A DNA stretch of 64,000 nucleotides from Verrucomicrobiia bacterium (lineage in GTDB: Bacteria; Acidobacteriota; Polarisedimenticolia; Gp22-AA2): the NCBI GenBank assembly GCA_035638075.1, contig DASRAU010000027.1, positions 41,508 to 105,507 of the forward strand, read 5' to 3'. This document shows positions 44,146-64,000 of this stretch, piece by piece (position 1 is the stretch's first letter; every line of letters starts with the position of its first letter). The notes beneath the pieces were generated by a model, which was not told the DNA's origin, did no database searches, and was given only the letters and a program-made list of their open reading frames with translations. A program made the translations under genes and the position numbers.

Positions 44146-44850
44146 ATGCCGGTCGCCGGAAAGCCGCGCCAGTCAAGGCTTCTACGCCTGTACGCGGCCG
44201 CCATCGCCGCGGCGATCCTGGCGCCGGTTGTTCGTGCCGACGACACCGTTCCGGCCGACAGCACCATTCGGCCCGAAGGCACCGTCTGCGCCGCCAGCAC
44301 CGACCCGGCGGAAAGCCTGCTGGCCTCCCTGCATCCGGACTACCGGCAGTTCATCTCGTCGATCCGTCCGCTCGCCGAGGGCGAAGGGACGCGCGCGTCG
44401 GTGTACATGGTGCTGGTCCGGCCGGGCGCATCCGATGCCACGTCGCGCACCAGCGCGCCGCTCGCCGGCCAGGGAGCCCGCAACGACATCCTCTATGACC
44501 CCGGCGTCCTGCACTCCGACCGCAGCATGGCCTGGAGGCAGCTGCTGCTCGATCACGAATACTTCCACGCACGGCACCTGGCCGGCTCGACGTCGGTGCC
44601 GCTGCCGTCGCGGGCGGGGGCGGGCTTCGAACGCCACTATTTCGAGGCGGCGGCGTGGGGCTGGAGCGTGGCGCAGGCGCGCGCCGGACGCTACCCGGGG
44701 CTGCGCGAAGCGGAGTTCCGCGAAGCGCTCGATCGGCTGGGAGACCACCTGCGCGCCATGCGCCCGGCGGGAAGCTACGCCGCGGTCACGATGCCGACTT
44801 CGTCACTTCTGCCAGCAGCTGCCGCGCCTCTCGCTGCTGCGGGTCGATGA
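44146..44850 (+). CDS. Secreted hypothetical protein with an HExxH motif
   Basis: It has a signal-like N-terminus (LLRLYAAAIAAAILAPVVRA) and HEYFH at nt 44554-44568. Its last roughly 21 codons overlap the convergent gene 44786..47692. Confidence 0.45.
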   Translation: MPVAGKPRQSRLLRLYAAAIAAAILAPVVRADDTVPADSTIRPEGTVCAASTDPAESLLASLHPDYRQFISSIRPLAEGEGTRASVYMVLVRPGASDATSRTSAPLAGQGARNDILYDPGVLHSDRSMAWRQLLLDHEYFHARHLAGSTSVPLPSRAGAGFERHYFEAAAWGWSVAQARAGRYPGLREAEFREALDRLGDHLRAMRPAGSYAAVTMPTSSLLPAAAAPLAAAGR

Positions 44851-47692
44851 CCAGCGACTCTTTCAGGTATTCGACCCCCTTCGCCTTCTGGCCATCCTGC
44901 AGGTAGGAGAGCGCCAGGGCGTTGTAGAGCGTCGTCGTCTTATACCCCTTGCTGCGCGCGGTCTCGAGGGCGGCAATTGCTTCTTTCGGATGCTGCAGTC
45001 TTCCCTGCGCGGCGCCGAGGTTCACCCAGGCCTCGAGGTTGGAGTCGTCCTTGGCGACGGCCTTCTTGAGGATCGCCACCGCCTCCTCGAGCCGGTTGGA
45101 CCGCCCGTACATCGCCCCCAGGTTCGCCATGGTCGCGGCGTAGTCGGGGTCGAGCTCCATGGCGCGGCGGAACTCCCGCTCGGCGCCCGGGAGATCCCGG
45201 TTCCACTCGAGGATGAGTCCCATCCAGTTGTGATGCACGACCGACTGCTCGTTGAGCGCCAGGCCCTTGCGGACGATGCCTTCGAGGGTCGGGATCTTGG
45301 CCGTGTTCTGGTAGAGCGTATGCAGCTCGGTGAGCGGATCGCCCAGGCTCGGGTCGAGCTGCAGTGACGCAAGCAGCTCGCGCTCGGCCGCGACCTTGTC
45401 GCCCGACTTGAGGAGCAGCGCCCCGAGCGCCGCGCGCGCCTCCGCGAAATCGGGGTGGGCGGCGACCTGGCCCCGGAGGAACTGCAGCCCCTCGTCCATG
45501 CGCCCGGCCTCGCCGTAGAGCCGCGCGAGCTGCGTGTAGGTCAGCCGCTCCCCCGCCGCGTCGATCTCGAGCACGCGCTTTGCGGCCGCGATCGCCGTCG
45601 CGTAGTCCTTCCTCTCGCGGGCGATCTGCGCTTTGAGCAGGAGCGCCGGGACGAAGTCGGGCGACAGCTTGAGCGCCTCGGCCACCGACGCCTCGGCGCG
45701 GGCGTAGTCCTTGGCCTTGAGCCGCAGCGTCGCTTCGTTCACGTGCGCCGTGATCAGCGCCTCGCCGCCGAGGGTCGTCGCTCCCGGAGAGCCGGCGCCT
45801 GCGCCGCCGCCCGCCCCGGCGCCCGCGCCCGGGGGCGCTCCCGTCGCTCCCCCCTCTTCCCCGCCCGAGATGTAACCGAGGGAGCGGAGCTTCTCCATCA
45901 TCTCTTTCTCGACCTCGCCCTGGGCCGCGCCGCCCGCCACGAGCGTGCCCGTCTGCAACGGGCGGCCGACAGGCTCGTAGCTCGGAATCGTCTGGCGCGG
46001 GAAGCGGGCGAGGAACTCGGGTGCGATCGCCTCCTCGACGACGCGTCCCGGCATGTCCTCGCCTTTCGGGAGTCCCAGCAGGTAGAGCGCGGTCGGCGCG
46101 ATGTCGAGGAGCGACGTCGTGTCGAGCGCGCCCGCCTTCACCTCCGGCCCCGCCAACAGGAAGATGCCGTAGCGCCGGTGCCAGAGCCCCGGCTTCCCCT
46201 CGACGTAGGGCGGCTCGTTGGCCGGCCGCCCGGTGCCGTTCCGGAAGCCGTGGTCCGACATCACGATGACGACGGTGCGCTTGTCGAGCTGCTTCAAGAC
46301 CTGCCCGAGCAGCTCGTCCTGGTAGGCGTAGTAGGCCTCGACCGTCCCGCGGTAGCGCTGGAAGTCCTCCGCCGAGACCATCCCCATCTTCGGGGGCATG
46401 AAGTGCTGGTAGCGATGCCCGACCTCGTCGATGCCCTGGTAGTAGATGGAAAACAGGTCGGGCTGCCCATGCGCCAGCAGGTCGAGCGCGGCGGCGTGGT
46501 ACGAGCGCGCCCCGGCGACGATGCCCGCGAGCCGGCGGAACTCATCCGGCGTCGCGTCTGCGAAGCGGCGCAGGTCGCGGTCCGGGATGTCCTCCGCCTT
46601 CACGAGCCGCGGCTGCAGCTTCGCGAAGTAATCGGTCGGCCAGGTGGCGCCGCCCGCATCCTTGAGCTCCGGCGCGAACGAGAAGGTGCTGTAGGCGACG
46701 CGGTCGGAGACCATCGTTCCTTCGATCTGCTCCGCGGGCCAGGTGGCCCACCAGCCGATGAAATCCGAGGTGCGGCCGACATCCCCGAGGATGTTCCAGA
46801 GCGCTTTCACTCTGCGGGCCCGGCTCGACACCGGGGTCGGCTTGCCGGTCGCGGCGTCGCGCACGAGGAAGTCGATGACCCCGTGCTGGTCCGGCGGCTT
46901 GCCGGTGGCGGCGGTGGTCCAAAGGATGGGCGAGAGCATCGGGTCCATCGACTTCATCGGCCCGTACGCGGCGCGCGCCTTGAGCGCGGCGAGATTCGGC
47001 ATCCGTCCGGCCTTGATGAGCGGGTCGAGGATTTCCCAGTCGGCGCCGTCGAGCCCGAGGATCGCCACCTTGAGCCCCGTCTGCGCCGCGCGCCGGCGGA
47101 CCGCCTCGGCAGAGAGTTTCGCCTGCAACTCGGCCGAGCCGCCGCCGTTGCCGAGGCGCACCGCCACCGGGTCGAAGCCTTCCGCCTGGAGACTCTTGCG
47201 GATCGACTCCTCGGCGTTCGAGCGTCCTTCGCCCAGCGCGATCGCTTCGCCCGAGAGACCGCGCGCCCACGACTCGACGGCCGAGACGGCCGCGCCGCGG
47301 ATCTTCTCTTCGAGGTCGGGGGTCGTTCGGACCGAGCCGAGCACGCGCCCCGCCGCAGCATCTGGAATGCCGGCGCTCACCTCGTAGGTCGCGGCGAGCG
47401 AAGCCCCTTCGCTGGAATGCAGCGACACTTCGCCATGCACGACCAGAGGACCCGAGCCGAGGCGGATGGTCCGGCTCGAAAACGGCAGGTGGAAGTGAGT
47501 GCCGGGGGCGAGTGGGGTGGCCTGGCCGCCGCTCAGGCGGTAGGCCCGCTCGCCCGGCGCGACCCGCTCGAAGCCGAAGGCAAGCACGAGTGCGGCCACC
47601 ACGGCGAGCGCGGCCGCGGCCGGAAGCCATGCCGGGACGGCCGACCGCCCTGTCCGCTTCGGCGGCGGGGCCCCTTTTCCACGCTGGCTCAC
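44786..47692 (-). CDS. Membrane-anchored fusion protein: SPFH/band-7-like segment, alkaline-phosphatase-superfamily (type I phosphodiesterase/nucleotide pyrophosphatase) domain and C-terminal TPR repeats
   Basis: 968 aa with an N-terminal TM segment. AP-superfamily motifs are LGLDGADW, SPILWTTAATG, IDEVGHRY and VIVMSDHG. There are at least 8 TPR-like repeats at the C-terminus. Confidence 0.75.
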   Translation of the reverse strand: MSQRGKGAPPPKRTGRSAVPAWLPAAAALAVVAALVLAFGFERVAPGERAYRLSGGQATPLAPGTHFHLPFSSRTIRLGSGPLVVHGEVSLHSSEGASLAATYEVSAGIPDAAAGRVLGSVRTTPDLEEKIRGAAVSAVESWARGLSGEAIALGEGRSNAEESIRKSLQAEGFDPVAVRLGNGGGSAELQAKLSAEAVRRRAAQTGLKVAILGLDGADWEILDPLIKAGRMPNLAALKARAAYGPMKSMDPMLSPILWTTAATGKPPDQHGVIDFLVRDAATGKPTPVSSRARRVKALWNILGDVGRTSDFIGWWATWPAEQIEGTMVSDRVAYSTFSFAPELKDAGGATWPTDYFAKLQPRLVKAEDIPDRDLRRFADATPDEFRRLAGIVAGARSYHAAALDLLAHGQPDLFSIYYQGIDEVGHRYQHFMPPKMGMVSAEDFQRYRGTVEAYYAYQDELLGQVLKQLDKRTVVIVMSDHGFRNGTGRPANEPPYVEGKPGLWHRRYGIFLLAGPEVKAGALDTTSLLDIAPTALYLLGLPKGEDMPGRVVEEAIAPEFLARFPRQTIPSYEPVGRPLQTGTLVAGGAAQGEVEKEMMEKLRSLGYISGGEEGGATGAPPGAGAGAGGGAGAGSPGATTLGGEALITAHVNEATLRLKAKDYARAEASVAEALKLSPDFVPALLLKAQIARERKDYATAIAAAKRVLEIDAAGERLTYTQLARLYGEAGRMDEGLQFLRGQVAAHPDFAEARAALGALLLKSGDKVAAERELLASLQLDPSLGDPLTELHTLYQNTAKIPTLEGIVRKGLALNEQSVVHHNWMGLILEWNRDLPGAEREFRRAMELDPDYAATMANLGAMYGRSNRLEEAVAILKKAVAKDDSNLEAWVNLGAAQGRLQHPKEAIAALETARSKGYKTTTLYNALALSYLQDGQKAKGVEYLKESLVIDPQQREARQLLAEVTKSAS

Positions 47693-47832
47693 CTGGCTCG
47701 AACGCTCCGGAAGGTCAGACCGACGATGCTAGGGGCCATGCCCGCGATTGGCAAGACCCGCCACGGGAGAGCCGGGAGTGGGTCCGGAGGAGAGGGACGG
47801 CGGGAAAAGCTGCCCCCGACTACGAGAATGAT

Positions 47833-48936
47833 ATGGACGCCCCGGCGGCTTCGACCGATCTTTCCGGCTGCGGAGCCCCCGAGCCCATGCCCATGACCCC
47901 GGACCACCTGTCCTCCTTCGTCCTGACCTCGGGAATCCTGGCCTGCTCGACGCTCGTCGTCTGGATGTCCGCCTCGGCCCTGCGCCGCCTTGGGCGCGCG
48001 TCGATTCGCCCGGGGTCACTGGACGGAAACGCGCCGGAAGGCCGACGCCCGGTGGCGACCGCGACCCCCGCGCCCGAGTTGGACCGCTTCGTCCGGCTGG
48101 TCGAAGGGCTGGCCGCCGCTGGACCCGATGCAGAACACGGACAGGCCGCGCCGGAAGCGACCCGCGACCTGGCGGTGGACATTCTCGAGCGGCTGGGCGG
48201 CTCACCGCAGGAAGTCGAAGCATTGCGAGACCGGCTGGATCGGGAAGCCTCACGCCCGGACGCCCCTCGTCCGCCGCGCGCCCTGGTCGAGCGGCTGCGT
48301 CTGGTATTTCGGCCCGCGGCCAGTCTCGGCAATCCCGCCGCCGTCCAATCTTCCGCCGGCCGTACCGCCGCAAGCACTCCCTCCGCCGGCGCTTCTGTGG
48401 CCGCCGAGAGTGCGCCCGACGGCTCGACCGAAAACCGGCTGCTGTTCGTGAGCTTCGAGCAGGAAATCCGCACGGCCGAGCGCCGCAAGGCGCCGCTCAC
48501 CCTTCTCGACCTGCGGGTCGAAGGGTTCGACGCGTTCGAAGAGCGCTTCGGCCGCGCCGCCACCGACCGCATCCTGCGCGGCGTGGCGCGCGCCGTCCGC
48601 AGCCAGCTCCGCCCCGACGACAAGCTCGTCCGCGACGCCGGCGGCGCCTTCCTCGTCATCGTCCCCGGGCTCGCGGCCGAGGGCGTCCGCGCGCTCGCGG
48701 CGCGCATCGAGTCGGCGATCGCCCGGCACAAGTTCGCCCTCGAGCGCGGCCGCACCGCCGTGGTCGAGGCGAGCGTGTGCGCCGCCACCTACCCGCAGGA
48801 CGGCCGCTCGTACGACGCGCTCCTGACCGTGGTGCGGACCCGCCGGGCACTCGCACCCAAGGGGCGCGTCGTCCCCGGCCCGTCCTCCGGTCCCTGGCGC
48901 CCCTACCCGCACCGCATCGACGCCCCGGTCAACTAG
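47833..48936 (+). CDS. Membrane-anchored protein with a degenerate GGDEF domain
   Basis: ATG at 47833; the alternatives 47887 and 47893 are possible. One TM segment is present. The C-terminal GGDEF fold has ..RDAGGAFLVIV.. in place of R.GG(D/E)EF and DLRVEGFDAF in place of the DLDHFK metal site. Confidence 0.6.
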   Translation: MDAPAASTDLSGCGAPEPMPMTPDHLSSFVLTSGILACSTLVVWMSASALRRLGRASIRPGSLDGNAPEGRRPVATATPAPELDRFVRLVEGLAAAGPDAEHGQAAPEATRDLAVDILERLGGSPQEVEALRDRLDREASRPDAPRPPRALVERLRLVFRPAASLGNPAAVQSSAGRTAASTPSAGASVAAESAPDGSTENRLLFVSFEQEIRTAERRKAPLTLLDLRVEGFDAFEERFGRAATDRILRGVARAVRSQLRPDDKLVRDAGGAFLVIVPGLAAEGVRALAARIESAIARHKFALERGRTAVVEASVCAATYPQDGRSYDALLTVVRTRRALAPKGRVVPGPSSGPWRPYPHRIDAPVN

Positions 48937-49062: not shown

Positions 49063-54531
<5,469 letters not shown>

Positions 54532-54629
54532 GCAGGTCCTCTGACGGGTAGCGCCCGACAGTCTCACCAAGTCGTTCTTCCGAGTGCCTCCTAAGCAATT
54601 GCAATAACGCTACTTGCCGCGATTTTTCC

Positions 54630-54649
54630 GAGACTCGCAACCAAGTCTC
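54630..54649. promoter_or_regulatory. Inverted repeat GAGACT-N8-AGTCTC, a candidate upstream activator site
   Basis: A perfect 6-bp inverted repeat lies about 200 bp upstream of the -24/-12 element. Related AGTCTCA / CAAGTC(G/T) words recur at about 54561-54575, 54641-54650, 54711-54737 and 54787-54794. Confidence 0.3.
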
Positions 54650-54826
54650 ACGATTCAGTCTACTAAGTCTAGTTTTAACAATGAGTTAATTAACCTTCCC
54701 ATCAGGACACAGTCTCATCTCAAGCCTCCAAGTCGGGAGCCTGGGCTCCGGAGCAATCCGCACCGCCAAATATAAGTCGTTTAAATCAAGTCGGTTGAGT
54801 AGCGAACGTACCATCCATTACGGAGT

Positions 54827-54842
54827 TGGTATCGGGGTTGCT
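54827..54842 (+). promoter_or_regulatory. Candidate sigma-54 (-24/-12) promoter TGGTATCGGGGTTGCT
   Basis: It matches TGGCAC-N5-TTGCW with exact GG/GC spacing (GG at positions 2-3, GC at 14-15). It lies about 50 nt upstream of the MKK start of the first peptide gene and directly downstream of a sigma-54 activator gene. Confidence 0.5.
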
Positions 54843-54892
54843 CCTAGGGGTGGCAGATGAGGACGATTAAAACGCCGCCTCGGGAGGATACG

Positions 54893-55162
54893 ATGAAGAA
54901 GATGAGCGCAGTGATGGCACTTGTGGTGGTTCTCGGAACGATGGTGATGACGGCCGCCCCCGCTTCGGCGGCGACCCCTCAGATCTCGGCCCCGACGCAC
55001 ACGGCCATGCCCCCGGCCGCCGCGATCGGCCTCCTGGAGCGGGTGATGCAGCTTCTGGGCATCCGCGTGGCGCCGACGGCTCCTGTGGCCAGTCCGACCG
55101 CCCCTGCTACGCCGACAACGGACGGTGCCATTTGGGGGTGCAGCCTTAGGGGTACGTGCTAG
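54893..55162 (+). CDS. Small secreted peptide precursor, copy 1 (89 aa; predicted mature about 63 aa, C-terminal AIWGCSLRGTC)
   Basis: ATG at 54893 lies 5 nt after GGGAGG. The Sec-type signal is MKKMSAVMALVVVLGTMVMTAAPASA/AT. A conserved amphipathic core is followed by a Pro/Thr/Ala linker and a terminal two-Cys motif. Paralog comparison shows only synonymous changes in the core. Confidence 0.7.
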   Translation: MKKMSAVMALVVVLGTMVMTAAPASAATPQISAPTHTAMPPAAAIGLLERVMQLLGIRVAPTAPVASPTAPATPTTDGAIWGCSLRGTC

Positions 55163-55210
55163 TCAGCCCAAGCAATGAGGACGATCAACAAGTCGCCTCG
55201 GGAGGATACA

Positions 55211-55471
55211 ATGAAGAAGCTCAGCGCAGTGATGGCACTTGTGGTGGTTCTCAGCGCGATGGCGATGACCGCCACCCCCGCCTCGGCGGCCACCCCCCAG
55301 TTCTCGGTCTCGGCGCACACGGCCATGCCTCCGGCCGCCGCAATCGGCCTCCTGGAGCGCGTAATGCAGCTCCTGGGCATTAGGACCGCCCCGGTCGCCA
55401 GCCCGACCACGCCTTCGCTTAGGCCCGATGAGGCCATTTGGGGCGGCTGCAGGGCGCGTGGGACCTGCTAG
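55211..55471 (+). CDS. Small secreted peptide precursor, copy 2 (86 aa; C-terminal AIWGGCRARGTC)
   Basis: It has the same architecture and the same GGGAGG RBS as copy 1, and lies 318 nt downstream of the copy 1 start. Confidence 0.7.
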   Translation: MKKLSAVMALVVVLSAMAMTATPASAATPQFSVSAHTAMPPAAAIGLLERVMQLLGIRTAPVASPTTPSLRPDEAIWGGCRARGTC

Positions 55472-55497
55472 TCGAAAATAGACAACCAATTCCAAGA

Positions 55498-55526
55498 GGG
55501 CCCCTCTACGGGGGGCCCTTTTTTTT
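55498..55526 (+). terminator. Rho-independent terminator
   Basis: The GGGCCCC / GGGGCCC stem has a 7-nt loop and is followed by T8 (55519-55526). It sits 27 nt after the copy 2 stop. Confidence 0.75.
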
Positions 55527-55533
55527 GGCTGAT

Positions 55534-57363
55534 CTAATCTAGGTGGGCGCGGTCTGAGTCACCCATCGGTACTTGGTCTCTCGGAAAGTATTCCTTCCAC
55601 CGATTTCGCACAATATCGACCGTCTCTCGGTCAGCGAATAACTCTTCTGGATACCAAGGTTTCATACGGGCGTCGATGGCGATCGGTGATTCGAAGACCG
55701 GGTGATGGCGTGCAAGGTAAACCCTTCGAGCGTGCAAGTCTGCTGCGGGCTCAAAGCGGGTGAAGGTCATCCAAAGGAAATTGAAGACGCTTCGGGTGGC
55801 GCGCTGGGCGTCGTCGGTCAGGACAACGAGGGGCCAGGGCGCGAGGGATGGGTGTTCCAGCCACGGCGTCACGTCGGTGGCCGGGGTCCCGGGCGGCAGC
55901 TCTGACGGAAATGGGGTCGCGGTCAACACGAGGCATCCCGGGGCAAACACGCGAGCTTCCCTGATGCCGGCCGGCAGCGCGCCTTGGAATTCCCCCGGCA
56001 GCTCGCGCACTGGCTCACCGACACCAAGTAGCACCGCCTTGCTTCCTTCATTGACGCGGGGGCCGGCGTAGTCGAGGCTGTCCATCGCGAGGTTTGCGAA
56101 GACGAACAAGTCGGTGCGGAAATCTGCGCGCCGCAGCACCTCGGTCAGCACCCTCCGGAAATCCTTCAGGTCGCAGGGCCGATCGAGAGCCAGCAGGAAT
56201 TTGGTGAGCGAGAGCTGGCCTTCGCCCAGGATGCGGAACGCCGACGCCATTGCCTCGCGCTTGTAGCGCTGGCGCACGACGGCGGCCGACAGGGAGTGAT
56301 AACCGGTCTCACCGTATGACCACAGGTCGGTCACGGCTGGCATGACGACGGGGAAGAGCGGCGACAGCAGCGCCTGCAGATAGTCGCCGATGTAGAAATC
56401 CTCCTGGCGCGGCTTGCCGACCACGGTCGCGGGATAGATTGCGTCGCGGCGGCGCGCCACTGCGTCCACCCTGAACACTGGGTAATCATGAGTCAGGGAG
56501 TAGTAGCCGTAGTGATCGCCGAATGGCCCTTCGGGACGGCGCTCCCCAGGCGGCACCTGTCCCAACAGCACAATCTCCGCGTCGGCCGGGAAGGACAGCG
56601 GGAAACTGTCCATCCGCGCCATCGGCAGCTTTCGCCCCATCACGAGCGAGGCTAGGAGGAGCTCAGGAGTGTTTTCTGGAAGGGGGGCCACTGCGGACAG
56701 CATTAGCGCCGGCGGGCCGCCGAGCGACACTGCCACGGGAAGCGCGCGCCCGAGGGTCTCCGCCGCCGCGTGATGGAATCCTCCGCCCTTTCCGATCTGC
56801 CAGTGCATGCCGGTGGTGGTGTCGTCGTAGATCTGCAGTCTGTAGAGCCCGAGGTTATGTCCATGCCCGTCGGGATGCTCCGTGTAAACCTGCCCGAGCG
56901 TGATGAACGGACCGCCGTCTCGAGGCCAGGTCGTGAGGGCGGGCAATTGGTTTAGATGGGGCAGGTGCTCGACCTGCTCCAGAACCGGCGAAGCCGTCAC
57001 CGTCCGGGTGCCGAGGTTCATGATGACAGGCAGTAGGTCCCTCTGCCTCCAGAGCTTCGCCGGCGTCGGCGGCATCAACACTTGGGGAAGCGACGCGGCC
57101 CGGGCGATGAGCTGTTCCGGGCGACGGCCGAACGACCGCTCGACCCGCCGCGCGGTCCCGAACAGGTTAGTGACGACAGGCATCCGGTGTCCGCGGACGT
57201 TCGTGAACAGGAGCGCGGGCCCGCCGGCGGCCACGACGCGACGGTGGATCTCGGCTATCTCCAAGCGCGGATCAACCTCCGCCTTCACTTCGGCCAGGTC
57301 GCGGTCGCGCCGGAGCAGATCGAGGAACGCCCGTAGATCCTTCAGTGGAGAATCAACCCGCAC
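55534..57363 (-). CDS. UbiD-family (prenyl-FMN dependent) decarboxylase
   Basis: 609 aa with typical UbiD blocks (GGPALLFTNV.G, WP.DGGPFITLG, LGLYRLQ, MHWQIGKGGG, EGPFGDHYGYY). Confidence 0.85.
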   Translation of the reverse strand: MRVDSPLKDLRAFLDLLRRDRDLAEVKAEVDPRLEIAEIHRRVVAAGGPALLFTNVRGHRMPVVTNLFGTARRVERSFGRRPEQLIARAASLPQVLMPPTPAKLWRQRDLLPVIMNLGTRTVTASPVLEQVEHLPHLNQLPALTTWPRDGGPFITLGQVYTEHPDGHGHNLGLYRLQIYDDTTTGMHWQIGKGGGFHHAAAETLGRALPVAVSLGGPPALMLSAVAPLPENTPELLLASLVMGRKLPMARMDSFPLSFPADAEIVLLGQVPPGERRPEGPFGDHYGYYSLTHDYPVFRVDAVARRRDAIYPATVVGKPRQEDFYIGDYLQALLSPLFPVVMPAVTDLWSYGETGYHSLSAAVVRQRYKREAMASAFRILGEGQLSLTKFLLALDRPCDLKDFRRVLTEVLRRADFRTDLFVFANLAMDSLDYAGPRVNEGSKAVLLGVGEPVRELPGEFQGALPAGIREARVFAPGCLVLTATPFPSELPPGTPATDVTPWLEHPSLAPWPLVVLTDDAQRATRSVFNFLWMTFTRFEPAADLHARRVYLARHHPVFESPIAIDARMKPWYPEELFADRETVDIVRNRWKEYFPRDQVPMGDSDRAHLD

Positions 57364-57680: not shown

Positions 57681-58217
57681 ATGGTCATACGCGTCCGCAA
57701 ACTGGAGGCCGCGCGACTGCAGCTCGAAGCTGCTGTGCGGTTGTATTTCTCGGATGCTAGTCCAGTCCCAGTGCACACATTAGTGTCCGCAGCGTATGCC
57801 ATCTTGCGAGACATCAACGAACAACGTGGCGGTGGGTTCATGGTGAAAGATCTCCACACGCTTGTTGGTGCGGAGCGTGCAGCCGACCTTCGGAAACAGT
57901 TCAAGCGAGCTGAGAACTTTTTCAAGCATGCCGATACAGACCCGGAAGGAGAGATAGAGTTCAACCCGATCGAGACGCCGTTACCGCTCTTTGAGGCGAT
58001 TCTCAAGTACGTCGAGTTCACCGGCGAGAAGCCTCCTGAGCTCATGGCCTTCGCCATTTGGTTCTTGCTCGAAAACAAAGACTCGCTATCGAAGGACTCG
58101 CCCTACGGCATCATGGTTGAGCGGCTACTGGCGACCAATCCGTCACGCACGCGGGCGGCGTTCTTTCGTGAGGCGCTTGAGTTCCTGGGCGGTAGCCCAG
58201 GGGAGCGTGGCGCATAA
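57681..58217 (+). CDS. Hypothetical all-alpha protein
   Basis: 178 aa from an ATG start. Codon usage is atypical for the upstream 54 kb. It contains an R-x6-H element (RAENFFKH). No family was recognised. Confidence 0.5.
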   Translation: MVIRVRKLEAARLQLEAAVRLYFSDASPVPVHTLVSAAYAILRDINEQRGGGFMVKDLHTLVGAERAADLRKQFKRAENFFKHADTDPEGEIEFNPIETPLPLFEAILKYVEFTGEKPPELMAFAIWFLLENKDSLSKDSPYGIMVERLLATNPSRTRAAFFREALEFLGGSPGERGA

Positions 58218-58346: not shown

Positions 58347-58727
58347 ATGACCCGCCATCTGTCATGGTTAGCAGTTACGGTCGCGGTCCTAGGGTCCTTA
58401 GCGTGTAGCGAAACATCAACCCAACGCAGCAAGTCGCAGGGCAGCGACAACGGCGTCAGGACTCAGCGGTCCTTTACTGAGTCTAACGCGTACGAAGTGG
58501 TCCCAGTCGCGGATGGCGGCGCCTATGCCATCGCGTTCGATTCCATCTGGTACCTCCGAGCTGGGGAAGCTGTGCGAGTGAAAGAGGTTGAGAGGCTCAG
58601 TGAAGGAACAGGGGGCGGTATTCCAGCGCACGGCGAGGCGTGGGCCCTTGCTATGGTGGCACGCGAAAGACAGTTACGAAAGCTCGCGGAGAGCCCTGAC
58701 GAGGAGCCAATTCCATCAGATCAGTGA
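58347..58727 (+). CDS. Hypothetical small lipoprotein
   Basis: 126 aa. ATG is preceded by a G-rich RBS. The signal sequence has the lipobox-like LGSLAC. It uses TTA/CTA/ACA codons that are rare in the upstream core genes. Confidence 0.45.
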   Translation: MTRHLSWLAVTVAVLGSLACSETSTQRSKSQGSDNGVRTQRSFTESNAYEVVPVADGGAYAIAFDSIWYLRAGEAVRVKEVERLSEGTGGGIPAHGEAWALAMVARERQLRKLAESPDEEPIPSDQ

Positions 58728-59075: not shown

Positions 59076-60143
59076 CTACGCCGACCAAGCCCTTCGAAGC
59101 TCGTTAGGCCCAAGGACCTCCTCCGGAATGCGGCGACCGGCTTTGAGGATGGCGTCGACTTGATCACGCACGTCCGGGGACAGCACGTCGAGGACTCTGG
59201 CTCGATCGACATCAACGAAGCACTCTTGAACCGGCCAGCCTTGTGGGTGGCCGAACGACTCGGCTGCCAACAGCATTTGGCGGTGGAGCTCAGTGGCTGG
59301 CAGCACAGTGGGCAGTCCCAGGTCCATTGCGCAGCGGCCCGCATTCCAGGCGATGTCGAGCCCGGCATAGTCAAGATCGCCGACGTAGTGGATAGATTCA
59401 ACATTGCGCTCGATCGTTTTGAGGTGGCCAAGCGCCGCAAGGATGCTCCTTCCACCGCCATACGCTACCAAGTCGTAGGACCTTGCTGCGGTCTCACTAA
59501 GGACGACCCGCGCGATGCTGAAGGGGCCAGCGTTTTCGAAAATCACTACGCGGCCGCCCTCGCCGACCGCTTCCCAAGCAAGCGGTAACGCGCTGGGCAG
59601 GCACGCAAGCATCTCAAGCGTCAGGTGCCCGGGCCCGAACAGGGAGGTGGTCGCGAGCGACGCCAGCAGCTTCTCATCACCTGTAAGCTGCAGCGAACGA
59701 TACTTCAGGGGCGCTGGCTCACGGAACGCTCCGTTCACCAGTCCCTCGTGGACACCGTGCAGGAACTCGACCTGCTGCACGGACAGGCTCCGGCACTGAG
59801 CCACCCAGTGAAGGCTCGGGTGCCACGCAAATGTCCTCCACGGAAAACCAGACTGTGCCGCTCGATCGCGAACAATGTCCACGCTGGTCGGAACAGCGGG
59901 ATTCATCAACCGATCCCAGCGCTTCCCCCGCTCTGGTGGAAGCCGTATGCTTCCGCGTGCCTCGATGGACCTGAGCGCCTCGAGCAAGAGGCGCCGCTCT
60001 GCAGGCCCTGCCATCCTGTGGGGAAAGACCTGTGCCAAGTGCCGCCAGAGATCTTGCGAGCCGACGCGAACGGCGGTGCCAGCAAGGAGGCCGCGCTCGA
60101 ACTCGTCGAGTCGGCGTTCATCGAGCACGGAGTGTGCCCTCAA
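59076..60143 (-). CDS. jetD: Wadjet JetD-like protein (DUF3322/DUF2220, Toprim-like nuclease subunit)
   Basis: 355 aa from a TTG start that overlaps the upstream stop by 4 nt. Toprim-like motifs are VVIFENAGPF (Glu) and YVGDLDYAGLDI (DxD). It lies immediately downstream of a giant coiled-coil SMC-like ATPase. Confidence 0.6.
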   Translation of the reverse strand: MRAHSVLDERRLDEFERGLLAGTAVRVGSQDLWRHLAQVFPHRMAGPAERRLLLEALRSIEARGSIRLPPERGKRWDRLMNPAVPTSVDIVRDRAAQSGFPWRTFAWHPSLHWVAQCRSLSVQQVEFLHGVHEGLVNGAFREPAPLKYRSLQLTGDEKLLASLATTSLFGPGHLTLEMLACLPSALPLAWEAVGEGGRVVIFENAGPFSIARVVLSETAARSYDLVAYGGGRSILAALGHLKTIERNVESIHYVGDLDYAGLDIAWNAGRCAMDLGLPTVLPATELHRQMLLAAESFGHPQGWPVQECFVDVDRARVLDVLSPDVRDQVDAILKAGRRIPEEVLGPNELRRAWSA

Positions 60144-63100
60144 TGCTCCACACTGCCGCGAACGGCGGCGGGGGCGTTTTCCCGCCGTCCGATGCGAACC
60201 GCTTCGATGACACGGGCCTCGTCGGGAGCGTACTCGACCAGCCGACGCCCCGTGTTGCGATCGACTCGCTCGTTGCGGAGGCGGATCACGTTCGGAAGGG
60301 CGCGTAGGGCTTCGTGATCGTTAACGCCCGTCGTGTAGATGAGTTGCACGCCCATTGCCCGGGCGACATCACGCTGAAGTTCCAGAAAACGAACCCGCGA
60401 CGCACGGCCGATGGGGTTATCGAGGATGAGGACGCTGGAGGCGCGCCTTGAGAGCCCGCGGGCGCGGCCTCGCACGCGGGCGAGCGTGCAGTAGAGAAGG
60501 ATGGCGCCCGTGAGCTGTTCGCCACCGCTCGAACGGGCCATCTCCGGGATGCTCACGGTCCGGCGGTCAAGCGCTGGGTCGGGATGCAGCACGCGAACCT
60601 GAACCGGGCGCGCGAGCCGTCGCACAGCGGCCTGGACCAATCCAACGCCCCCCAGATCCTGCTTGCCATCGAGGAGCTCGTCGATGAGCTCCGCGAGGCG
60701 AGCGCGTTTCTCACTCGGGTCTTCTGGCTCCTGCGTTTGAATCCTGAGGAAGTATGCACCCCCGACGCCCGGCACGTGATCCGGAAGCTTCGAGAGCCCC
60801 GAGGCCTGGCGCAGCAGCTTCATCCCATCTTCCGCGACGGCATGCAATTCATCAACTAGAACCGTTCGGTGGCGATCGATGCCCGAGATCTGTTCCTCCA
60901 GCACACTGCGGCGTAACTCAAGCTGGGCTCCGAGCTGCACGCTAGCGTTCTCGAGTGCAGGGTCGTCATGTTCCTGGAGACGCCGCACCCAGGGCGTATC
61001 GAGACGCTCGAACTCGGTGCCGCCCGCGAACGTTCTAAGCGCCGCGACTGCGGTTCCTCGCTCGCTGTCCATCGACTGCCAGTCCACGCGGGCTTTGCGG
61101 AGCCAATCGCCCAGCTTCTTCAGCCGCGAGGGCAGCATTGACTCTTCGAGCGTTGCTGGCAGACTAGGTCCGGCAGGCTGGATTCCATCCGCGAGCAGAT
61201 CCGCATAGTGATCGCGCAAGGACCTTAGCCGCTCCGCATGCCGCCCGATGTCAGCTGCACGCTGTCTAACCTGCTCGGCATTCTCCTTGGCCTCGTTCGC
61301 CTGCGCCTGCTCGGATTCCGCGCAGTTGTGGTGCAGCTTCGCCTCGCCGTCTAAGGCCGCGGCCTCGGCCTCGGCGAGTTCGGGCGTGCTCGGTGGGCGC
61401 GGAAGGGGTGGCAGCATGATGAACGCTTTGCAGGCCTCTTCGGCCTGCTGGAGTGACAGCATTGCAGGTTCGATACGGCCCTTGAGATTGCCCATGCGGC
61501 CCTGCAACGAGCTCGTCTTCGCCTCTGCCTCTTGCCGCAGTTGCTCAACCGTGTCCGGCTCTGCGAGGCCAGCTATGTACCCTCGAACGATGTCCTCCGT
61601 GATTTCCGCAGAAAGCAGCTTCGCGAGTCGAGCGCGCTCATCTCTCCCGTTGTCGTCGTTCTGCTTCGCCAGGGCCAGGAGAGCATCCGCCCCGACCTTT
61701 CCTTCGTACTGGCCCCGTATGAGACGGTAACGCGCACGAAACTCGTCGAGCGGTCCCGGCTCAGCGACAATCTCGCCTTCGACGTATTCAATCTCTGACC
61801 GCTCGGCTTCGATAGGCCGCGCCTCCTCCGCTTCCTTCTGTGCGACTTCGGAGGCGTCCTTCGCACGGTTGTCGGCAGTGTCTGCAAGGTCGAGCCACTG
61901 CTTGCTCTCGTCAGCGGCTTTCTTCGCCCGAATCCTCGTCACTTCGAGATCCGCATGCCACTTCAGACCTGGCCGGATGTATTCTTCGACCAAGGCGCTG
62001 ATGAGACGGACTGCGTTCCGGGCAGCCTCCAGATCGCGCTCCTGATTCCGCCGCTCGTTCTCGAGTTGCTTACGCTTGGCTGTCTTCTGGTCGCGCTCCT
62101 CCTGCAGTTCATGCTGCCGTGAGCGAGCCTCCTCCTCCCGTTGGTACGCACCCTGGACCTCACGCGAAGTATTTTCGAACCAGCTCATCGGGTAACGCGC
62201 GCGGAACGACCGAAGCGTTTCGGCTGCACGAGTGAGATCGCGATGTTGTGCTTCCGTCGAATGGATCCGCTGTCGGTACTCATCCAGGCGGACTCGTAGT
62301 TCGGTCAAGCGCACCTGCGCCACCTCACGGTCAAACCAGCCCCATTCCTTTGGTCCAACAACAACGCCTGGCAGATCCGGCGCTCGGGTTAGTGTATCGG
62401 TGTCACCGATAAGCACCGGGCCTTCCGGCTCGAGTCCAGCCTCACGTAGGAGCTCGGCGGCCCGTTTGAGGTCGGCCGGCCGAACGACAACTCCCTGAGC
62501 GAGGGAAGGCGCTTTGCGGACGGCGGCTCGTGCTTCCTGCTTGGGCACGTTTGTCTGAATCCAGGACCACCCCGACCAGGCTTGGCCGCCGAGACGTTTG
62601 CTCAGGAACTCGACGACGTGCTGGGCATCGGCCGACGGCGGCAAAAGACCGTGCTCCTCAAGGTGAAGAGCGGAACGTTCGTCGTCTGCAACCGCCAGCC
62701 GCGTTTCCACCACGCTTCGCTGCGCGGCGCGAGCTGCTTGTTCGAGCGTGGCCACCGCGTCGTCCCCGATACGATCGGCATCGATCGCCTCGAGCTCAAG
62801 CGCGGCCTTAGTCACCGCATCTCTCTCGATGGCCTCGCGGTCCCTTGTGGCGCGCTCGAAGCGATCCTTGAGTGTCTGATGCTGTAACTGGCACTCCGAC
62901 AGCACGTTTCCGGCCCCTGCGAGGGCATCGTCGAGCGACTTGAGCGCCTCGTCGAGACGCGCGATTTCGCCATCGAGGTGCTCGACCGCACTCTGATGAT
63001 CCGAGGCTTTGGTCGTCCAGCGGATGACGCCGCCGTCCGGTGACTCCTCGGGACCGAGGAATCGCTCGCGCACCAGTTGCTTACGCTTGGTCTCGCCAGC

Positions 63101-64000
63101 CTCAAGGCGTTGCTCGAGTCCCTTCGCCTCGGTTTCCGCCTGACTCTGCACCTTACCGGCCTCGACAGCCTGAAGCCGGCACTCGCGTGCTTCATCGCGG
63201 GTGGTCTTCTCGGCGCCACGTGCGTCCTCGGCCCTCTTTCGATGGCCTTGGGCCCGCCACGTCAACGCCGCCGCGAACCTGCGCGCCGCGCCCTCAAGTT
63301 CTGTGCGCAATGGCGCGTGTTCGCGCTCTCGTTCCTGCAGCAACCTGCGTTGGTCTTTAGCCTTCTCTTCGAACTGGAGGGCCCGGCGGAGTGGTACAGC
63401 AGCACTCCAAATCCGGGCGAGACGCTGGGCGTTGCGCCACTCGTCCTGGGCCTGTTCGTGCTCCTCTTGGAGACGGGCGAGTCGTAGCTCCGCGCCATGT
63501 TTCTTGAGTTGCGCGGCACGCCCCAACTTGCTCGCTGCCTGTCTCATCTGATCCTCGGCGGCGGTGGCATGACCAATTCGTGCCGCCTCGTTTCGGCGCG
63601 CCTCCTCGCCGAGTTCCTTCAGACGGATTCCCGCAAGCGCGTCGAGGGATCCGAGATCAGCGTGCACTTCGCCGAGCTGAACACGAAGCCCTTGGCGACG
63701 CTCGTGGATGCCGCCTAGCGTGGACACGCGCGCGATCAAGCCGCCAACGAGATTCTGCTCGGGAACAAGCTGCTCCTTGCGTTGTAGGAGCTCTCGCCTG
63801 AATGTGGTTATATTCTTACCGACCCTGTCACCGAGGGCGGGATCAAGCGCGAGTGCCAGCAGGAAGTCGATAAAGTCCTCGGCCTCTGGGAAACGGAATA
63901 GCTCATCCGCTCCACCCTCACGCTGATTCATCCTGACCTGATACGAGAACAGCTCTGGATCGATGCGGGCCGCCTCCAACACCTCCTGCCACTCGCGTTG
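60140..64000 (-). CDS. jetC: SMC-like coiled-coil ATPase, JetC-like (partial; N-terminal head outside window)
   Basis: The frame stays open to the window edge (..QREWQEVLEAARIDPE..). More than 1000 aa are heptad-rich coiled coil. The C-terminal head carries signature SSGGEQ and a Walker-B-like VLILDNP. Walker A is not visible. Confidence 0.6.
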   Translation of the reverse strand, partial: QREWQEVLEAARIDPELFSYQVRMNQREGGADELFRFPEAEDFIDFLLALALDPALGDRVGKNITTFRRELLQRKEQLVPEQNLVGGLIARVSTLGGIHERRQGLRVQLGEVHADLGSLDALAGIRLKELGEEARRNEAARIGHATAAEDQMRQAASKLGRAAQLKKHGAELRLARLQEEHEQAQDEWRNAQRLARIWSAAVPLRRALQFEEKAKDQRRLLQEREREHAPLRTELEGAARRFAAALTWRAQGHRKRAEDARGAEKTTRDEARECRLQAVEAGKVQSQAETEAKGLEQRLEAGETKRKQLVRERFLGPEESPDGGVIRWTTKASDHQSAVEHLDGEIARLDEALKSLDDALAGAGNVLSECQLQHQTLKDRFERATRDREAIERDAVTKAALELEAIDADRIGDDAVATLEQAARAAQRSVVETRLAVADDERSALHLEEHGLLPPSADAQHVVEFLSKRLGGQAWSGWSWIQTNVPKQEARAAVRKAPSLAQGVVVRPADLKRAAELLREAGLEPEGPVLIGDTDTLTRAPDLPGVVVGPKEWGWFDREVAQVRLTELRVRLDEYRQRIHSTEAQHRDLTRAAETLRSFRARYPMSWFENTSREVQGAYQREEEARSRQHELQEERDQKTAKRKQLENERRNQERDLEAARNAVRLISALVEEYIRPGLKWHADLEVTRIRAKKAADESKQWLDLADTADNRAKDASEVAQKEAEEARPIEAERSEIEYVEGEIVAEPGPLDEFRARYRLIRGQYEGKVGADALLALAKQNDDNGRDERARLAKLLSAEITEDIVRGYIAGLAEPDTVEQLRQEAEAKTSSLQGRMGNLKGRIEPAMLSLQQAEEACKAFIMLPPLPRPPSTPELAEAEAAALDGEAKLHHNCAESEQAQANEAKENAEQVRQRAADIGRHAERLRSLRDHYADLLADGIQPAGPSLPATLEESMLPSRLKKLGDWLRKARVDWQSMDSERGTAVAALRTFAGGTEFERLDTPWVRRLQEHDDPALENASVQLGAQLELRRSVLEEQISGIDRHRTVLVDELHAVAEDGMKLLRQASGLSKLPDHVPGVGGAYFLRIQTQEPEDPSEKRARLAELIDELLDGKQDLGGVGLVQAAVRRLARPVQVRVLHPDPALDRRTVSIPEMARSSGGEQLTGAILLYCTLARVRGRARGLSRRASSVLILDNPIGRASRVRFLELQRDVARAMGVQLIYTTGVNDHEALRALPNVIRLRNERVDRNTGRRLVEYAPDEARVIEAVRIGRRENAPAAVRGSVEH

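Follow-up and report, generated by a model that had tools for sequence, protein, structure and literature searches.

Two tandem genes for small, predicted exported two-cysteine peptides under a putative sigma-54 promoter beside a kinase-fused activator gene

A 64-kb stretch of contig DASRAU010000027.1 (positions 41,508 to 105,507, in full length called the window here), from a soil bacterium that probably belongs to the Acidobacteriota, carries two tandem genes, pep1 and pep2, for small pre-peptides with a predicted export signal and two cysteines near the C-terminus. These genes lie behind a gene for a very large sigma-54 activator, the enhancer-binding protein EBP1, and a preliminary description of this DNA had proposed that activator, promoter and duplicated exported peptides form a tightly regulated effector, signal or bacteriocin-like module. 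We compared the window with 16 further distinct metagenomic loci (17 including the window), and the metagenome scan for these related loci was run with alignment A1. The features of the window that carry the argument are the following.

49063-54531, + strand: EBP1, 1822 aa, with Pkinase, AAA_16, TPR, GAF, Sigma54_activat, AAA_lid_14 and HTH_8 domains
54560-54565, + strand: candidate activator half-site AGTCTC(A), at about -293 from the predicted transcription start
54630-54649, no strand assigned: candidate activator dyad GAGACT-N8-AGTCTC, at about -223 to -204 from the predicted start
54711-54716, + strand: candidate activator half-site AGTCTC(A), at about -142 from the predicted start
54827-54842, + strand: predicted sigma-54 promoter TGGTATCGGGGTTGCT, with GG at 54828-29 (-25/-24) and GC at 54840-41 (-13/-12)
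54853-54892, + strand: inferred 5' untranslated region (UTR), a conserved block with GGGAGG at 54882-54887, its start placed from promoter geometry alone
54893-55162, + strand: pep1, an 89-aa pre-peptide (signal peptide 54893-54970; predicted mature part of 63 aa 54971-55159; then the stop codon)
55175-55210, + strand: duplicated 5' UTR block with a second GGGAGG at 55200-55205 and no second -24/-12 element
55211-55471, + strand: pep2, an 86-aa pre-peptide (signal peptide 55211-55288; predicted mature part of 60 aa 55289-55468; then the stop codon)
55494-55526, + strand: intrinsic terminator, a G+C-rich hairpin with a 13-bp stem (55494-55522) and T8 (55519-55526)

The two peptide genes each have GGGAGG 5 nt 5' of the ATG, and the ribosome sites of the peptide genes are conserved among the related loci. 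An in-frame ATG at 54857 (MRTIKTPPREDT..., 36 nt upstream) was considered as the start of pep1 and ruled out because it reads AAG in L086-L090 and because the copy of it before pep2 has no ribosome site. Both genes are part of a direct repeat, D1 (54857-55062 vs 55175-55380), with a spacing of 318 nt and 88% identity over 206 nt, and the second peptide copy is accordingly attributed to a 318-nt tandem duplication that took the 5' UTR block and left out the promoter. The products share an identical 23-residue core, HTAMPPAAAIGLLERVMQLLGIR, and end in AIWGCSLRGTC (pep1) and AIWGGCRARGTC (pep2), both running up to the stop codon; the pep2-type C-terminus CRARGTC was also present in a fragment from a different sample, P0022. 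Between the two copies there are 27 synonymous and 24 non-synonymous differences, with a proportion of synonymous differences (pS) of ~0.40 and a non-synonymous to synonymous ratio (pN/pS) of 0.31 that falls to 0.22 across the helix described below, and orthologs of the peptide give pN/pS values of 0.2-0.56. Judged from these substitution patterns, pep1 and pep2 are real genes, and both copies are under purifying selection. The pair noted in the preliminary description is thus real in the window, but tandem duplication is not a feature of the family, as two peptide copies occur at one of the 17 loci and the relatives carry a single peptide gene. P0001 (L086:4016-4285), the single peptide of the closest relative, joins a pep2-like signal-peptide region to a pep1-like C-terminal half, a mosaic that points to an exchange between tandem copies by unequal crossing-over or gene conversion.

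The N-terminal region of the pre-peptides consists of an MKK n-region (K/R), a 19-residue hydrophobic core (Kyte-Doolittle 2.1) and an invariant P-A-S-A|A site. The signal peptide was judged from n-region, hydrophobic core and A-S-A|A site alone, and these features give the pre-peptides the basic n-region, h-region and small -3/-1 residues of a pre-protein for Sec and signal peptidase I (SPase I). Export of the peptides through Sec and closure of a disulfide loop by their two cysteines are both likely.

The spacer between EBP1 and pep1 differs in composition from its surroundings, with a G+C content of 0.41-0.53 across 54550-54850 as against 0.68-0.76 in coding sequence. TGGTATCGGGGTTGCT is the single match to TGGYAY-N5-TTGCW in the 64 kb (0.06 expected) and has the GG at -24 and GC at -12, at canonical spacing, that characterize a sigma-54 promoter; from this GG/GC geometry transcription is predicted to start near 54853. 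The corresponding element, TGG[CT]A[CT]-N5-TTGC, lies 62-81 nt 5' of the start codon in 17/17 distinct loci, and it is present even at loci whose peptides are just 25-31% identical to pep1. AGTCTC has 12 sites in the 64 kb, four of which fall within 157 bp (54560-54716), and the heptamer TGAGACT/AGTCTCA was present in all 11 distinct upstream regions that were compared. Sites with a GAGAC core occupy conserved positions at ~-332, -263, -248 and -181 from the start codon, the last of these at 9/11 loci, and distant loci carry dyads of the same kind (GAGTCTCA-N11-TGAGACTC in L100 and GTCTCA-N11-TGAGAC in L102). The half-sites at 140-300 bp upstream are locally enriched and positionally conserved, and are candidate upstream activator sequences. 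The 5' UTR block is invariant among close relatives. A hairpin in this block (GAGG...CCTC) was tried and rejected, as RNAalifold gave four invariant pairs and no covariation, and the pairs are broken in two distant loci.

EBP1 is, by its domain matches, an enhancer-binding protein of the order kinase, STAND (AAA_16), TPR, GAF, sigma-54 AAA+ and HTH_8, with a Pfam Sigma54_activat match at E=6e-69. The kinase motifs VALK, HND (HNDLKPQN), DFG and APE are all intact, as are the Walker A motif at residue 1507 and the GAFTGA loop at residue 1554, and a scan of EBP1 for membrane segments found no convincing transmembrane segment, which predicts a cytoplasmic protein. It is the sole sigma-54 activator of the GAFTGA and HTH type in the window, and it provides the cognate AAA+ GAFTGA protein with a DNA-binding HTH that is expected for the target of a bacterial enhancer-binding protein. 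Wherever a contig has upstream sequence, an EBP1 ortholog (42-92% identity) is present and ends ~300-400 bp 5' of the peptide gene. At the other end, each related peptide gene runs into a hairpin and T-run of its own, the stem sequence of which differs each time, and because each peptide gene has this private terminator the peptide unit appears to be autonomous. It is monocistronic at 16 loci and consists in the window of the two peptides alone; co-transcription of the peptide with the second activator found downstream in relatives was ruled out by the same terminators. The conserved anatomy makes it highly probable that the peptide genes form a transcription unit controlled by sigma-54 and EBP1.

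In these respects the preliminary description has stood well. The 1822-aa kinase-fused sigma-54 activator that it saw ending at 54531 (open reading frame (ORF) 49063..54531, with Pkinase and Sigma54_activat domains), the AT-rich ~300 bp behind it, the -24/-12 element, the two paralogous ORFs of 86-89 aa with GGGAGG, the Sec-type signal peptides, the identical core with a conserved AIWG(G)C C-terminus at the stop and the hairpin-T8 terminator were each found again. The layout of dedicated activator, sigma-54 promoter and exported peptide, which it had proposed to follow up by a co-occurrence check, is conserved, with homologous peptides in related loci linked to an activator of the serine/threonine kinase (STK)-GAF-sigma54 type and to the promoter.

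Homologs of the peptide were collected with a word-indexed search (17), a profile search of 1.84 billion representatives (11) and a broadened profile (60 clusters), and the family comprises ~65 sequences, nearly all from metagenomes, forest-soil assemblies among them. The signature of these 65 sequences starts with a Sec-type signal peptide with an A-x-A site ([AS]xA[AG] within the first 80 residues in 48 of them) and continues with a short, hydrophobic, amphipathic helix with an invariant terminal Gly (GLLERVMQLLGI in the close group), a low-complexity Pro/Thr/Ser/Gly-rich linker of variable length, and a C-terminus composed of (S/T)(T/P)(D/E)xAIWGG, usually a basic residue, and then C-x(2-6)-C. 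Exactly two Cys residues are found in 63/65 members, the loop of 2-6 residues between them occurs in 48 distinct sequences, and 0-1 residues follow the last Cys. In two members, P0021 (L095:5407-5772) and P0064, internal repeats of the AIWGG module stand ahead of the terminal Cys loop; P0021 has four AIWGGSG copies with (D/N)E before three of them. Two AlphaFold2 runs (confidence score pLDDT 55 and 59) produced the signal helix, a 12-residue helix, a C-terminal turn and no further fold. The hydrophobic moment of the helix is 0.25 over a 16-residue segment and 0.5 over the 12-residue core, and the net charge is near neutral.

The preliminary description had not recognised this family, and profile and sequence searches of Pfam, NCBIfam, PDB sequences and Rfam for the peptide family likewise gave nothing above noise. 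The literature searched for the peptide family contained no description of it. A scan of 185,579 species-representative genomes with the family motif, which reaches the close subfamily only, returned no confirmed match, and a profile search of 80 UbiD-anchored genome loci did not find a peptide homolog. The NCBIfam profile NF041742 (WGxxGxxG) scored ~11-12 bits vs a 35-bit cut-off with matches that begin in the signal-peptide region, and was dismissed as noise. Sorting signals of the MYXO-CTERM/JDVT-CTERM type consist of a Cys motif, a transmembrane helix and an Arg-rich tail (bioRxiv 10.1101/2023.06.07.544157), and a Cys-type C-terminal sorting signal was ruled out for the peptides because neither a transmembrane helix nor an Arg-rich tail follows the second Cys. 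The peptide family is previously undescribed and unannotated, and its regulatory logic is of a familiar kind.

The peptide unit and EBP1 are embedded in a conserved block, of which the window holds two further genes.

44786-47692, - strand: TPR and type I phosphodiesterase protein, 968 aa, matching Pfam Phosphodiest and many TPR families
47512-48936, + strand: GGDEF-domain protein (Pfam GGDEF, E=3e-17), directly 5' of EBP1

The order of the block is TPR-phosphodiesterase (-), GGDEF (+), EBP1 (+), peptide (+) and a second, paralogous activator (+). The TPR-phosphodiesterase gene is its outer neighbour and keeps its position in L097 and L100, where the GGDEF gene is also found in the matching place. 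In the window the GGDEF protein reads GGAF in place of GG[DE]EF, a degenerate active-site motif that makes diguanylate cyclase activity improbable, and its ORF start was probably set too far upstream since the listed start overlaps the opposite-strand gene. The second activator of the relatives (EBP2) is a kinase/pseudokinase-STAND-TPR-GAF-sigma-54 protein paralogous to EBP1, and most relatives have a large sensor-type regulator on either side of the peptide gene. The window carries the first four members of the block and lacks the second activator. As reconstructed from the aligned loci, the ancestral layout is activator, peptide and second paralogous activator, beside the GGDEF and TPR-phosphodiesterase genes. 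Neighbours of the peptide gene in the related loci are regulators, UbiD or unrelated genes, and no immunity, transporter or importer gene, and none for processing or for modification of a ribosomally synthesized and post-translationally modified peptide (RiPP), is linked to the peptide in the window or the related loci.

Several observations concern the surroundings of the unit. In one relative, L002 (1211-7162), caspase-like (C14) and subtilisin (S8) peptidase genes stand in the place of the second activator, together with an IS21-family element (IstB and transposase), a replacement that marks the region 3' of the peptide gene as a rearrangement hotspot. Relatives have a second conserved -24/-12 element, TGGTATCGG[TC]GTTGC (L001:10003, L003:7899 and L097:17023(-)), which lies 5' of the gene for a third sigma-54 activator (462-473 aa) adjoining UbiD; this activator gene is absent from the window, and the position of the element before the third activator suggests a cascade of enhancer-binding proteins. 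Convergent to the peptide unit in the window (55534-57363, - strand) is the gene for a UbiD-family, futalosine-pathway-like decarboxylase of 609 aa, with a best identity of 73% to metagenome-assembled genomes of Acidobacteriota that places the organism near them, an NCBIfam mena_SCO4490 score of 475 bits that is just below the 496-bit cut-off, and a ~165-aa C-terminal extension past the profile that is kept across 80 related genomes. The region 59076-63982 (- strand) encodes a Wadjet type III defence system with a JetD of 355 aa (PADLOC JetD3, E=7e-62) and a JetC of at least 1280 aa (E=1e-137) that runs past the window end, and the ORFs 57681-58217 and 58347-58727 between Wadjet and UbiD had no match.

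The layout of the locus resembles that of pilR-pilA, zraR-zraP, RNPP and ST-enterotoxin systems, yet it lacks what would define membership in any of them. In pilS/pilR-pilA a sigma-54-dependent type IV pilin gene adjoins the gene of its enhancer-binding protein. Common to both arrangements are an activator followed by a short monocistronic sigma-54 gene with a strong terminator, a product that is exported (as predicted here) with a variable, disulfide-bonded C-terminal region, and the occurrence of tandem paralogs. Unlike pilins, pep1 and pep2 have no class III leader, G|FTLIE or Glu5 and carry a predicted Sec/SPase I signal instead, and EBP1 differs from PilR in being a kinase-STAND-GAF protein and not a response regulator. 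The type IV pilin motif is absent from all members of alignments A1 and A4, there is no Pfam or NCBIfam pilin match, and a geopilin match to the peptide (E=1.1) arises through hydrophobicity only. In zraSR-zraP and pspF-pspA a small envelope protein is the dedicated sigma-54 target of the adjoining activator, and the locus shares with zraSR-zraP the activator-adjacent small gene with a signal peptide, the -24/-12 promoter and the one-gene regulon. There is, however, no sequence relationship to ZraP and no ZraP/CpxP/Spy Pfam match, the peptide is far smaller, and the ZraP/CpxP/Spy families lack the Cys-loop signature.

The RNPP quorum-sensing cassettes of Firmicutes (rap-phr, plcR-papR and nprR-nprX) offer an analogy of layout, in which a small gene immediately behind that of a cytoplasmic TPR regulator encodes a Sec-exported pro-peptide whose active part is C-terminal and strain-variable, and the regulator controls transcription of the peptide. 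The phylum differs (probably Acidobacteriota), and the regulator here is a sigma-54 AAA+ protein with kinase and GAF domains, unlike the HTH-TPR or phosphatase-TPR regulators of RNPP systems; an Opp-type importer is not linked, and the disulfide loop has no RNPP counterpart. No Rap, NprR, PlcR or PrgX was found among the domain matches of EBP1, and a Phr_nterm match (E=0.72, 1/22 members) is noise. Heat-stable enterotoxins of the STa/STb type are pre-pro-peptides with a Sec signal, a pro-region and a C-terminal disulfide peptide. The peptides have this order in common with them, including a disulfide near the stop and oxidation in the periplasm (both predicted for pep1 and pep2), but differ in having no sequence similarity to STa/STb, one disulfide vs two or three, and a chromosomal, sigma-54-regulated locus in an environmental bacterium. 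A further comparison is with EbfG, a group of small biofilm proteins secreted by Synechococcus elongatus (PMC9260433), whose likeness to pep1 and pep2 serves as a lead only. The genes for EbfG are tandem paralogs, and the proteins depend on a double-glycine leader and a C39-peptidase transporter, not on Sec.

The explanation that we prefer, with a probability of roughly 40%, is that EBP1 and sigma-54 drive a unit which makes exported disulfide-loop peptides acting as a cue outside the cytoplasm. From the conserved anatomy we infer that EBP1 would bind the TGAGAC/GTCTCA half-site array 140-300 bp upstream and fire the -24/-12 promoter at 54827-54842, and the resulting single short transcript, with its strong ribosome sites and strong terminator, would give two paralogous pre-peptides. 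These would be exported via Sec and cleaved after A-S-A, and their sole two cysteines would close a small C-terminal loop in the oxidising periplasm, so that the mature product of ~60 aa would comprise the amphipathic helix, a flexible Pro/Thr/Ala linker, and AIWGG with the hypervariable disulfide loop. The flanking sensor-rich regulators would control production of the peptide and may also respond to it. For its role we can only tentatively suggest a strain-variable extracytoplasmic cue of a signal-like or pheromone-like kind. Consistent with such a role, the peptide gene always stands against large sensor-type regulators, the hypervariable loop lies between invariant anchors, the repeated AIWGG modules of two members recall multi-copy pheromone precursors, and immunity and modification genes are not linked. 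Several points weigh on the other side. A feedback route is missing, because EBP1 and EBP2 are cytoplasmic and no conserved importer or membrane receptor lies nearby; conservation of the amphipathic helix equals or exceeds that of the C-terminal module, which would not be usual if it were a mere pro-region; the monocistronic high-expression architecture suits an abundant structural or envelope protein equally; and the structure models of the peptide are of low confidence (pLDDT 55-59). A bolder form of the proposal, a cassette for peptide cell-cell signalling in a Gram-negative soil phylum (probably Acidobacteriota) in which the loop is a pherotype-like determinant sensed by both flanking activators, is doubtful. 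Sensing in such a cassette would be direct after re-import, or indirect, and the system would stand as a sigma-54 counterpart to the RNPP systems of Firmicutes.

The most serious rival, a possibility to be kept in view, takes the product to be an abundant peptide of the envelope, surface or matrix that is under sigma-54 control, as pilA is under pilR or zraP under zraR, with a structural or protective function in the periplasm or outside the cell. Its helix would serve self-association or binding to a membrane or partner, and its loop would be an exposed, diversifying epitope. This would account for a monocistronic gene with a strong ribosome site and strong terminator at all loci, for conservation that peaks in the amphipathic helix, and for a low-complexity Pro/Thr/Ser linker; it requires no extra genes, the variable C-terminal disulfide loop parallels the disulfide region that type IV pilins are generally known to have, and the degenerate GGDEF protein as a conserved neighbour hints at a biofilm or surface programme. 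However, the mature product is very small with the 12-residue helix as its sole predicted fold, it shows no similarity to pilins, ZraP/CpxP/Spy or other structural families, and no assembly or secretion machinery is linked.

The bacteriocin-like option of the preliminary description has lost ground, and we consider a Sec-dependent antimicrobial, whose helix would attack membranes and whose loop would set target specificity, improbable. Small, predicted exported peptides with an amphipathic helix and C-terminal disulfide, a hypervariable loop and tight, inducible control would all suit such a toxin, but no immunity gene is co-transcribed or conserved alongside, a terminator follows immediately 3' at all loci, and what lies next to the peptide gene are regulators, UbiD or unrelated genes. 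The linked immunity gene and dedicated exporter of bacteriocins and class II microcins were not found, there is no conserved small downstream gene, and no transporter or processing gene is conserved beside the monocistronic unit. The near-neutral net charge, the modest hydrophobic moment of the helix (0.25; 0.5 in the core) and the chromosomal, syntenic position of the locus, which is not a mobile island, also speak against it. A processed or modified RiPP-like precursor, in which the helix is a recognition element, AIWGG a double-glycine-type cleavage site and a cyclic disulfide peptide of 7-10 residues the released product, is very unlikely. Most members do have GG directly before the Cys loop, AIWGG units are repeated in P0021 and P0064, and the contrast between a conserved N-terminal part and a variable C-terminal core resembles that of leader and core; on the other hand, pep1 has a single G before the first Cys, a classical Sec signal peptide is atypical of RiPP precursors, and the window and related loci contain no C39-peptidase ABC transporter, radical-SAM enzyme, lanthipeptide synthetase or cyclodehydratase, so that neither a modification enzyme nor a C39-peptidase exporter accompanies the precursor. 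Both of these readings are disfavoured because modification enzyme, transporter and immunity gene are not linked. An artefact, whether chance ORFs in high-G+C intergenic DNA or a non-coding RNA locus, is effectively refuted, for although high-G+C DNA yields many spurious ORFs and the peptides lack database annotation, there is purifying selection with many synonymous changes, ~65 homologs retain signal peptide, helix, Trp and Cys pair, the ribosome sites are conserved and no Rfam match was found.

Small exported peptides are systematically overlooked by annotation, and nearly all that is known here of the soil bacteria that carry this family (probably Acidobacteriota) comes from metagenomes. 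The locus offers a cleanly bounded conserved module of activator, candidate binding sites, sigma-54 promoter, peptide and terminator, and with it a testable handle on the targets of giant kinase-fused sigma-54 activators. If the cue outside the cytoplasm that we favour is in fact a signal, the family would offer one of the few examples of communication by peptides in a diderm phylum; if the role is structural, it would define a new envelope or surface peptide. In either case the promoter and activator pair would be a ready-made reporter system.

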